From a virus (Duplodnaviria; Heunggongvirae; Uroviricota; Caudoviricetes), in the IMG/VR virus record IMGVR_UViG_2563366883_000010, positions 1 to 12,178 of that record: DNA of 12,178 bases. The stretch is one strand, 5' to 3'. Both the position numbers and the translations under genes were made by a program. A model generated the notes under the pieces. That model saw only the letters and a program-made list of their open reading frames with translations, did not search any database and was not told where the DNA came from. Of this stretch, positions 9,589 to 10,251 are shown in pieces; position 1 is the first letter of the stretch, and each line of letters opens with the position of its first letter.

Positions 9589-9668
9589 AACGGCTCCTAG
9601 TTTACGTTGTTGGTTAGAAGCCCCGTTACTGCTCCTACAGTGCGGGGCTTTGCTTTTTGTGTTGATTG

Positions 9669-9713
9669 TGTGTAATGTGTCATTACACATAAATACATTA
9701 CATGAGGTGTAAT
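9669..9713. promoter_or_regulatory. Operator-like palindromes (four TGTAAT half-sites) between the RHH gene and the leftward operon
   Basis: TGTGTAATG-tgt-CATTACACA (9669-9689, 9-bp arms) and ATTACA-tgagg-TGTAAT (9697-9713), 5-50 bp upstream of the RHH start. Confidence 0.5.
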
Positions 9714-9717
9714 TAAC

Positions 9718-9897
9718 GTGTCAACACACAAAAACGAAAGGCGTGGTAATCCTCCGTTCCAGTTCCGTTTAGATCCTGACTTACGGGAAAAGATGGAAAA
9801 GGCACAACAACAGGACGGCGATGATTCTCTTGCTGCCTGGATAAAGCGAATAATCCGCAAAGAATTACAGCAACGCGGCATAGAACCCAAAGGATAA
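9718..9897 (+). CDS. Arc/Mnt-like ribbon-helix-helix transcriptional regulator (59 aa)
   Basis: GTG start with GAGG 10 nt upstream; PFQFRLDPDLREKMEKAQQQDGDDSLAAWIKRIIRKELQQRGI is co-linear with P22 Arc (PQFNLRWPREVLDLVRKVAEENGRSVNSEIYQRVMESFKKEGRI). Confidence 0.7.
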   Translation: MSTHKNERRGNPPFQFRLDPDLREKMEKAQQQDGDDSLAAWIKRIIRKELQQRGIEPKG

Positions 9898-9954
9898 AAA
9901 CTATCAGCGCCGTGGTGTGAGGTATTACGGCGCATTGCTATGCAGGACAACACA

Positions 9955-10128
9955 ATGACCGATAAAGAATTGACCAAAACATTATCACCGGCACGGAAAA
10001 GACGGCGCAGAAAGATAGAGCATGAATCAGAAAGATTCGCGCCATGTGCTTTTGCCCTTGAGCAATTCCTTAAAGAGTACAGGGAAAAGCGCTCATTGCA
10101 GGTATGGCAACGAACTGAACCAGACTGA
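9955..10128 (+). CDS. Hypothetical small basic protein (57 aa), downstream of the RHH gene
   Basis: ATG 9955 with AGGA 7 nt upstream (the track start at 9940 has no SD); contains RKRRRRK; followed by a plus-strand terminator. No family recognised; it may not be a real gene. Confidence 0.3.
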   Translation: MTDKELTKTLSPARKRRRRKIEHESERFAPCAFALEQFLKEYREKRSLQVWQRTEPD

Positions 10129-10222
10129 TTGCATTGCCCACCAGCCTGATAGCGGCTATCATCCCCGTGCTTATGTTTGGGATCACACACACAAACGGCG
10201 CAGCGTGTTATCTGTTCAGAAA

Positions 10223-10251
10223 GGCGGCTCCATTTCGGGGCCGCTTTTTTT
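10223..10251 (+). terminator. Rho-independent terminator closing the RHH transcription unit
   Basis: GGCGGCTCC-atttc-GGGGCCGC (8-bp stem with one G-U pair) followed by TTTTTTT. Lies between the convergent RHH unit and alpA. Confidence 0.6.

Follow-up and report, generated by a model that had tools for sequence, protein, structure and literature searches.

A ribbon–helix–helix gene with exchangeable inverted repeats as a candidate type-specific repressor at the early promoter of a capsid-forming phage-inducible chromosomal island

The 12,178-nt viral stretch analysed here (the window, positions 1 to 12,178 of IMG/VR record IMGVR_UViG_2563366883_000010) is a 12.2-kb capsid-forming phage-inducible chromosomal island (cf-PICI), a satellite of the family described in 10.1101/2022.09.08.507074. 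Its open reading frames (ORFs) and Pfam matches comprise int, alpA and primase genes together with the island's own capsid, protease, portal, connector and HNH/terminase genes. Between alpA and the minus-strand replication operon lies a gene for a 59-amino-acid (aa) ribbon–helix–helix (RHH) protein that is transcribed away from that operon. Two inverted pairs of TGTAAT half-sites, sites A and B, stand in front of the gene, and a small basic ORF and an intrinsic terminator follow it (Table 1). Comparison across ~80 loci supports these repeats as cognate operators, and we discuss the protein as a candidate repressor of the early promoter that they overlap.

The RHH gene, its repeats and the promoters beneath them

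GTG 9718 is the sole possible start of the RHH gene because an in-frame TGA occupies 9703-9705. AlphaFold2 (AF2) predicts an extended N-terminus followed by two confident helices, and this compact arrangement of N-terminal strand and helices (~45 aa) fills the protein, with no separate sensor domain. Sequence matches are distant. PHROG 228, 'Arc-like repressor', matches at 2e-6, and in hhalign alignments the strand and the two helices coincide with those of Mnt (29% identity over 41 columns, E 0.0012, probability 19.3%) and of Arc (E 0.002, probability 13.6%). Pfam returned nothing at E<=1 except Mistic (0.18), thus no Arc, Mnt or RHH_1 match, and sequence searches of PDB, NCBIfam and Pfam gave no significant family, the matches to ArtA and RNF169 being at noise level. 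The RHH antitoxins VapB12, MazE9 and HicB were among the weak structural and profile matches. NCBI's Prokaryotic Genome Annotation Pipeline (PGAP) gives the name YlcI/YnfO, that of a prophage protein family (NCBIfam NF041551), to a protein of the window's type, WP_012600012.1, whereas the window protein itself matches that model only weakly (20 bits, E 5e-4, below the 30-bit cut-off).

A profile search of 1.84 billion cluster representatives yielded only 49 relatives, the most distant of which reach the threshold of Pfam RHH_1; among the distant members, P0197 and P0195 scored 22.3 and 17.7 bits (cut-off 20.5). The database holds 117 clusters (90% identity, E <= 0.001) from Enterobacterales, Pasteurellaceae and Orbaceae, those with names being nearly all "hypothetical", and a genome scan added Oceanisphaera and Oceanimonas. 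Among 50,697 phage records only 4 matched, the best being a 15-kb record of satellite size.

Within site A and within site B, the half-site centres are 11 bp apart, about one helical turn, as is usual for the RHH superfamily. TGTAAT is clustered here, 4 of the 11 such hexamers in the 12-kb window falling within 43 bp. Two perfect 6-5-6 inverted repeats arose in the 67-nt stretch in 26 of 100,000 composition-matched shuffles; the whole window contains 7 such repeats. No further sites of this type, which we call T1, were found elsewhere in the window. Across 36 distinct T1 loci, conservation of site A (0.88) and site B (0.82) was close to that of codon positions 1 and 2 of the gene (0.89), compared with 0.60 for codon position 3 and ~0.5 for the adjoining spacer. 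In IMG/VR, 77 exact matches to the T1 operator were found, of which 35 lie directly upstream of T1 RHH genes, mostly on satellite-sized contigs. Of the other 42, 1 is cut by a contig end and 41 are isolated 15-mers in unrelated contexts; this search gave no sign of operators in helper-phage genomes beyond chance matches.

Both sites lie on predicted promoters. The leftward promoter P_left, which would head the early (replication) operon with a start near A9690, is the best promoter-like site in 9590-9770; an automated promoter scan missed it because that scan accepts a -10 only if its second base is A. The -10 and spacer of P_left fall under site B, and site A extends over ~+1 to +22 of P_left as well as the -10 of the candidate RHH promoter, so that the repeats overlap the -10, spacer and start region of P_left. 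For the RHH gene, TTTGCT-16-TGTAAT is the only plausible promoter, with TTG 9650-9652 and GTAAT conserved. The -35 of P_left lies within the RHH gene, being the reverse complement of bases 2-3 of the start codon, the whole Ser codon (TCA) and base 1 of the Thr codon. This TTGACA is present in 70 of 75 distinct loci, in all three of the types described below, and a -10-like hexamer stands 16-18 nt from it in most of the 75. The residues encoded beneath it, Met-Ser-Thr, lie in the disordered N-terminus of the AF2 model; the conservation therefore points to a constraint on the DNA rather than on the protein.

The first-pass annotation of this DNA had described much of this arrangement as we find it: a 59-aa RHH ORF reading away from the replication operon, a second inverted TGTAAT pair (site B), repeats in the control region shared by the two transcription directions, and a small basic ORF and clean terminator after the gene. 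It had also reported a 21-bp perfect palindrome, which shrinks to perfect 9-bp arms around a central TGT that is not self-complementary (site A). Its label 'Arc/Mnt-like' survives in part. The RHH fold is a sound assignment on profile and model evidence (PHROG 228, AF2), but the sequence evidence for the Arc or Mnt family falls short, with no Pfam match and hhalign probabilities of only 14-19%.

Table 1 Features of the cassette and its surroundings (window coordinates)
Feature	Position	Strand	Basis or remark
Capsid, protease, portal, connector and HNH genes	226-4325	-	ORF/Pfam
D5/primase gene, last in the minus-strand replication operon	6141-7973	-	ORF/Pfam
c4-a1b1 target and second C4 copy, further left	8951-9000, 8796-8883	-	Rfam
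First left-operon ORF (Ash plus Icd-like), ATG 9588, hosting isrK and C4	9031-9588	-	ORF/domain/Rfam
Immunity RNA C4	9274-9361	-	Rfam
Immunity RNA isrK	9383-9459	-	Rfam
Attenuator-like hairpin, CACACAAACGGCCTTTGTGTG then GCGTTTTCTG	9533-9553	-	Inside first ORF
Leftward open frame of 247 codons, spanning the entire cassette in antisense	9597-10340	-	ORF
Conserved hairpin, loop at the left edge of the exchanged cassette (9619)	9618-9650		Folding
Candidate weak RHH promoter, TTTGCT-16-TGTAAT or alternatively TTGCTT-17-TAATGT	9649-9676	+	8/12 matches
Putative operator site A, TGTGTAATG(9669-9677)-TGT-CATTACACA(9681-9689)	9669-9689		Repeat search
Putative operator site B, ATTACA(9697-9702)-TGAGG-TGTAAT(9708-9713)	9697-9713		Repeat search
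Predicted leftward promoter P_left, TTGACA(9724-9719)-16-TGTAAT(9702-9697)	9697-9724	-	11/12 of sigma-70 consensus
RHH gene, 59 aa, GTG start, head type T1, strand PPFQFRLD	9718-9897	+	ORF
Conserved hairpin between RHH gene and small ORF, GCGCCGTGGTG...ACGGCGC	9907-9933	+	-17.5 kcal/mol
Small ORF, 57 aa (62 aa from ATG 9940), basic stretch ARKRRRRK	9955-10128	+	ORF
Intrinsic terminator of the RHH/small-ORF unit	10219-10253	+	Folding
alpA (activator/excisionase family), convergent with the RHH unit	10398-10586	-	Pfam Phage_AlpA 5e-18
Integrase	10961-12178	-	ORF/Pfam

Exchange of the reading strand together with the repeats

A genome scan and look-ups gave ~80 loci in many Gammaproteobacteria, of which 75 distinct loci or coding sequences were used in counts. 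Their proteins share a C-terminal helix, WIKRxxRKELQxRGIEPKG, and differ in the DNA-reading strand, of which there are three types, each accompanied by its own repeats at the same position. Type T1, that of the window, carries the strand PFQFRL (43 loci) with the repeats GTAATGTGTCATTAC and ATTACA-N5-TGTAAT; T2 carries KQIALRV (18 loci) with GTCATACACTTG-type repeats; and T3 carries [YF]QMRL (20 loci) with two copies of GGTAATTACC.

Two E. coli islands capture the exchange directly. In strains JNEC-KY208 (locus L001) and SHP24 (L090), identity to the window falls to ~50% across 9619-9855, between flanks that are 100% identical, from 9300 (L001) or ~9520 (L090) to 9618 on the left and over 9856-10450 on the right. 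With this segment, which holds the hairpin loop, the repeats and codons 1-46, T1 is replaced by T3. The alpA gene of these islands does not differ from that of the window while the repeats do, which rules out the repeats as AlpA sites.

The same slot also holds other RHH alleles, named YlcI/YnfO by PGAP, with repeats of their own: EcCICFT073 has AGGTGTGGCCCAC twice, and the cf-PICIs of O26:H11 and O157:H7 strains have GTGTGTTTCATG/CATGAAACACAC. Strain 94-3024 carries another such allele as an extra tandem module, and L002 likewise holds one. An hhalign comparison of the T1-T3 family with the CFT073 YlcI-type allele was not significant. In aggregate, alignment of these islands indicates that the protein and its sites are one allelic cassette, exchanged as a unit. 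Because the repeats change with, and are exchanged with, the DNA-reading strand, the comparison supports the view that they behave as cognate operators of the RHH protein.

The left edge of the exchanged segment falls in the loop of a conserved hairpin (9618-9650) that is stable on both strands, at -22.6 kcal/mol on the plus strand (z -4.5) and -19.7 kcal/mol on the minus strand (z -4.6). On the plus strand a T-run follows it, making it terminator-like; on the minus strand it would form a stem-loop in the 5' leader of the left-operon transcript.

In L002 (4330-5710) and L031, the interval from alpA to the early operon holds a tandem pair of complete RHH modules that differ in specificity. Both modules have a hairpin and repeats of their own, plus the small ORF in L002, and the inner module retains a remnant of the early-operon start. 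Cassettes also occur on plasmids, which account for 32 of the 216 cassette-bearing places in complete E. coli genomes. On plasmid NZ_JBSTQL010000003.1 (L170, 5500-6260), an intact T1 cassette with hairpin, both sites and RHH gene is divergent from a hypothetical gene followed by BrxR(WYL), BrxA, BrxB and BrxC, a BREX operon, and its other side is interrupted by an IS3 element. Its place ahead of BREX genes on a plasmid suggests that the cassette is reused as a portable control unit or switch.

Proposed control of the early operon and competing explanations

We consider it probable that the 59-aa protein is a type-specific RHH repressor of the early promoter and of its own synthesis, released by way of alpA read-through. 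An RHH dimer inserts a two-stranded sheet into the DNA major groove. RHH repressors occupy promoter-overlapping operators as dimers of dimers (PMC2724298). Like Arc and CopG, the window protein would bind as dimers, and as a dimer of dimers, to the four TGTAAT half-sites of the two inverted pairs. Sites A and B cover P_left and the -10 of the RHH promoter, and binding would therefore stop transcription of the early operon (Ash/Icd-like ORF, immunity RNAs, DUF4222, primase) from beginning and would limit the protein's own synthesis. The protein probably represses its own promoter, occupancy of site A limiting its synthesis, and the integrated satellite would stay quiet. Different cassettes would confer different specificities, much as phage immunity types do. 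At 19 of 20 diverse RHH loci from other taxa, Rfam detected no C4/isrK RNA, so that no candidate repressor other than the RHH protein is visible at those loci.

Release would most likely start with a helper that switches on alpA, without a helper anti-repressor. Over-expression of AlpA alone, in the absence of phage, induces excision and replication of EcCICFT073, and helpers switch on alpA (PMC6092414); EcCICFT073 has the same type of RHH module as the window. Transcription from alpA would then pass the weak side of the terminator and run antisense across the cassette into the early operon. Consistent with read-through, the terminator is asymmetric, with a 13-bp stem, ~-22 kcal/mol and a U7 tail on the plus strand, and a much weaker structure in the alpA direction (-14.6 kcal/mol, poor U-tract).

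The path of such a transcript coincides with a long open frame. Its ATG lies 58 nt past the alpA stop, and its TAG (9599-9597) falls on the ribosome-binding site that serves the first ORF of the left operon. Of 75 distinct sequences, 55 keep the frame free of stops across the RHH coding sequence (~27 expected under synonymous recoding) and 51 keep it free over the unrelated operator DNA of the three types, where other frames are open in 0-15 of 75. In the 24 loci with alpA at most 700 nt away, the frame is always open across the RHH gene, and its start falls between -70 and +93 nt relative to the alpA stop in 23 of them; L003, L075 and L056 are among the loci in which this openness is seen. 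Its product is not conserved between head types. A speculative reading is that the openness lets ribosomes follow transcripts that read through from alpA. P4 offers a parallel in eta, whose translation is coupled to the alpA homologue vis and prevents termination (PMC10111431); translation of the antisense frame would protect read-through in the same manner.

A more far-reaching version, which we hold to be doubtful, casts the cassette as the type-specific immunity repressor so far missing for Gram-negative PICIs and cf-PICIs, a gene within a gene that lies antisense in the post-alpA frame, with translated alpA read-through both silencing the RHH gene and bypassing P_left. Self-activating alpA transcription, triggered by the helper, would silence the RHH gene by collision or antisense pairing and enter the early operon from upstream of its repressed promoter, no anti-repressor being needed. 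If true, this would combine a P22 Mnt-type switch with read-through of the P4 PLL/vis/eta type.

Several points weigh against repression and alpA-mediated release as proposed here. P_left, the RHH promoter and both start points are predictions from sequence, the candidate RHH promoter is weak (8 of 12 matches), and some T1 loci have a poorer P_left -10 (TGTAGT). TGTAAT is itself a good -10, so promoter function, and not binding by the protein, could account for part of its conservation. With 26 bp (~2.5 helical turns) from centre to centre, sites A and B are not ideally spaced for cooperativity between them. The open-frame statistics ignore relatedness among loci. In the window, the C4/isrK RNA system alone could give immunity, and published PICI induction is explained through AlpA with no repressor needed (PMC6092414).

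Known systems offer partial parallels. In P22, Pant and Pmnt are overlapping divergent promoters that carry operators. The first-pass annotation had likened the layout to P22 immI, and as a functional analogy with its Mnt/Arc system (PMC2629481) this is fair: both have a small RHH protein, inverted-repeat operators of ~21 bp with half-sites one helical turn apart on overlapping divergent promoters, a repressor gene pointing away from the silenced operon and an antisense RNA layer nearby. Apart from its distance from the Arc and Mnt families noted above, the window protein lacks the Mnt-type C-terminal tetramerisation domain, the operon controlled would be the early/replication operon and not that of the antirepressor ant, and the gene, convergent with alpA, lies antisense inside a leftward open frame. 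CopG works alongside an antisense RNA, as the window protein would alongside C4/isrK. Similar to CopG of pMV158, a minimal RHH protein that blocks access of RNA polymerase to the promoter of a replication operon (PMC2724298), the window protein is a minimal RHH at a replication-operon promoter. However, CopG is co-transcribed with repB from the promoter it represses whereas the window gene is divergent, and the window protein is below the RHH_1 threshold that only its distant relatives reach.

At the level of the region, a parallel is the P4 immunity region (PLL-vis-eta/kil, PLE, CI RNA), which is not known to have a protein repressor at PLE. It shares with the window an AlpA-family gene upstream of a constitutive early promoter, C4/CI-type and isrK/seqA-type RNAs inside a Bro/Ash-like ORF, and a long ORF that starts after the alpA homologue and spans the early promoter (PMC10111431). 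The window differs from P4 in the RHH cassette inserted in opposite orientation between alpA and the early promoter, and in packaging with its own capsid genes.

The first-pass annotation had gone further, proposing a master repressor equivalent to Stl of Staphylococcus aureus pathogenicity islands (SaPIs) that a helper-phage product must inactivate. Repression itself gains comparative support from cognate repeats on P_left, but 'master' is too strong for this window, where C4/isrK RNAs are encoded just downstream of P_left. Stl and the Rpr proteins of Gram-positive PICIs are larger, multidomain helix-turn-helix proteins. They are encoded divergently between int and the replication module and are released when a helper protein binds them (PMC6092414). 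The window gene shares this position and orientation, with operators in the common region overlapping the promoter of the replication operon; the conserved C-terminal helix and tail could serve as a common docking surface across head types, and the literature leaves room for a Gram-negative PICI repressor (PMC6092414). Yet the window protein is a bare 59-aa RHH with no separate sensor or helper-binding domain, its T1 operator occurs in phage genomes only as chance matches, and the protein is nearly absent from phage records. Moreover, because AlpA alone induces EcCICFT073, which has the same module, and helpers act by raising alpA transcription (PMC6092414), the helper anti-repressor step is unsupported. 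We therefore regard an Stl-like switch as quite unlikely.

A more modest role, which we judge unlikely, would confine the protein to an accessory, moron-like unit of RHH gene and small ORF, the overlap with P_left being incidental and AlpA and C4/isrK running the early operon. In its favour, the unit ends in a terminator of its own and converges with alpA, the small ORF occurs as an add-on specific to E. coli and Shigella, and immunity RNAs are present in the window. Most loci lack the small ORF and C4/isrK and nevertheless retain the RHH gene, the repeats, TTGACA and the same spacing, and with site B inside the P_left core, binding cannot spare that promoter. The adjacency of the two genes, their common terminator and the weak matches to VapB12, MazE9 and HicB would also suit a type II antitoxin paired with a basic toxin. 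The small ORF matches phrog_21027 (1.6e-15), and its family comprises 36 clusters, found in E. coli and Shigella only, with a basic N-terminus and the conserved core SPARKRRRRK..EHESERFAPCAFALE. It is identical beside different, unrelated RHH alleles and absent at Klebsiella, Serratia and most other loci. Searches of Pfam, NCBIfam and PHROG matched no toxin family, and AF2 predicts a simple hairpin of two helices, too simple for a meaningful fold search. Its distribution indicates that the small ORF is not an obligatory partner of the RHH gene; we reject the toxin–antitoxin reading, an extremely improbable one, on the grounds that the ORF is dispensable and independent of the RHH allele, with no obligatory co-inherited toxin. 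We give equally little credence to the opposite strand as the true coding strand, with the RHH ORF non-functional and the repeats mere chance or pure promoter elements. PGAP annotates the minus strand and omits the RHH gene in L001 and L090, the minus-strand frame is unusually open, and codon periodicity is of no use in telling the two frames apart, as they share their wobble positions. The plus-strand product, however, has a confident RHH fold and belongs to a family conserved in many genera, and the repeats vary with its reading head, whereas the minus-strand product is Cys-rich, not conserved between head types outside the overlap and interrupted by stops in 20 of 75 distinct coding sequences.

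The case for a repressor bears on a gap in the field. Whether Gram-negative PICIs have a repressor has been left open, and the difference of their induction from that of Gram-positive PICIs has been called a mystery (PMC6092414). No paper in the literature searched links an RHH protein to PICIs. By sequence comparison, the cassette is a real, conserved regulatory unit at a key control point of Gram-negative PICIs, and probably encodes a repressor of the Arc/Mnt/CopG kind not previously described in that literature. Its position on the early promoter in the prototypes EcCICFT073 and O157/O26 cf-PICIs, and in satellites from many genera, makes it a concrete and cheaply testable candidate for a repressor that Gram-negative satellites had been believed to be without. 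Its alleles suggest how satellite "immunity types" could arise and how several satellites could coexist in the same cell.

Neighbouring features and annotation of the island

The gene order around the cassette is constant. Wherever the flanking genes were detected, alpA (37 of 37) and int (25 of 25) lie to the right and primase (32 of 32) to the left, all on the strand opposite to the RHH gene, and AntA/Bro genes, in loci that have them, are on the alpA side. Left of the cassette, the early operon runs from the Ash/Icd-like ORF through DUF4222 to primase; the DUF4222, SSB and PerC-type genes of the window are likewise on the minus strand. Annotated tqsA-inserted islands of E. coli SHP24, O26:H11 11368 and O157:H7 PV15-279 match the window at 97.8-98% identity, covering 89-97% of its length.

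The immunity RNAs isrK, both C4 copies and the c4-a1b1 target all lie inside Ash/Icd-like ORFs and, by their Rfam matches, are a duplicated RNA immunity module of the P1/P4 type just downstream of P_left. RNAs of the C4/isrK kind have already been published for Gram-negative PICIs (PMC10111431). With permissive Rfam thresholds over 9380-10420, the cassette itself was empty, only isrK and sub-threshold matches being returned. The terminator-like hairpin at 9533-9553 lies ~140 nt into the predicted early transcript and may be an attenuator; the CACACACAAACGG motif recurs in inverted orientation at 10185-10200. The int-alpA RNA (RF02996) occurs between int and alpA in L006, L012 and L074, while the window has no match to it at the gathering score.

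To the right of the cassette, the hairpin at 9907-9933 lies just beyond the boundary at 9856. It is also found in islands with unrelated RHH alleles, namely L002 (both modules), L089 and CFT073. A promoter-like site, TTGCCC-17-TATCAT (10134-10162, plus strand), precedes the terminator by ~60 nt, in a stretch conserved in L001, L002 and L089; it could give rise to a short transcript antisense to alpA read-through.

The cassette also poses an annotation problem, in that PGAP often omits the RHH gene and calls a pseudogene on the opposite strand. The gene is left unannotated in L001 (11443-12036) and L090 (9682-10275), and at these positions, as well as in L089 (9465-10022), an 'Icd-like' or hypothetical pseudogene is placed opposite the cassette.

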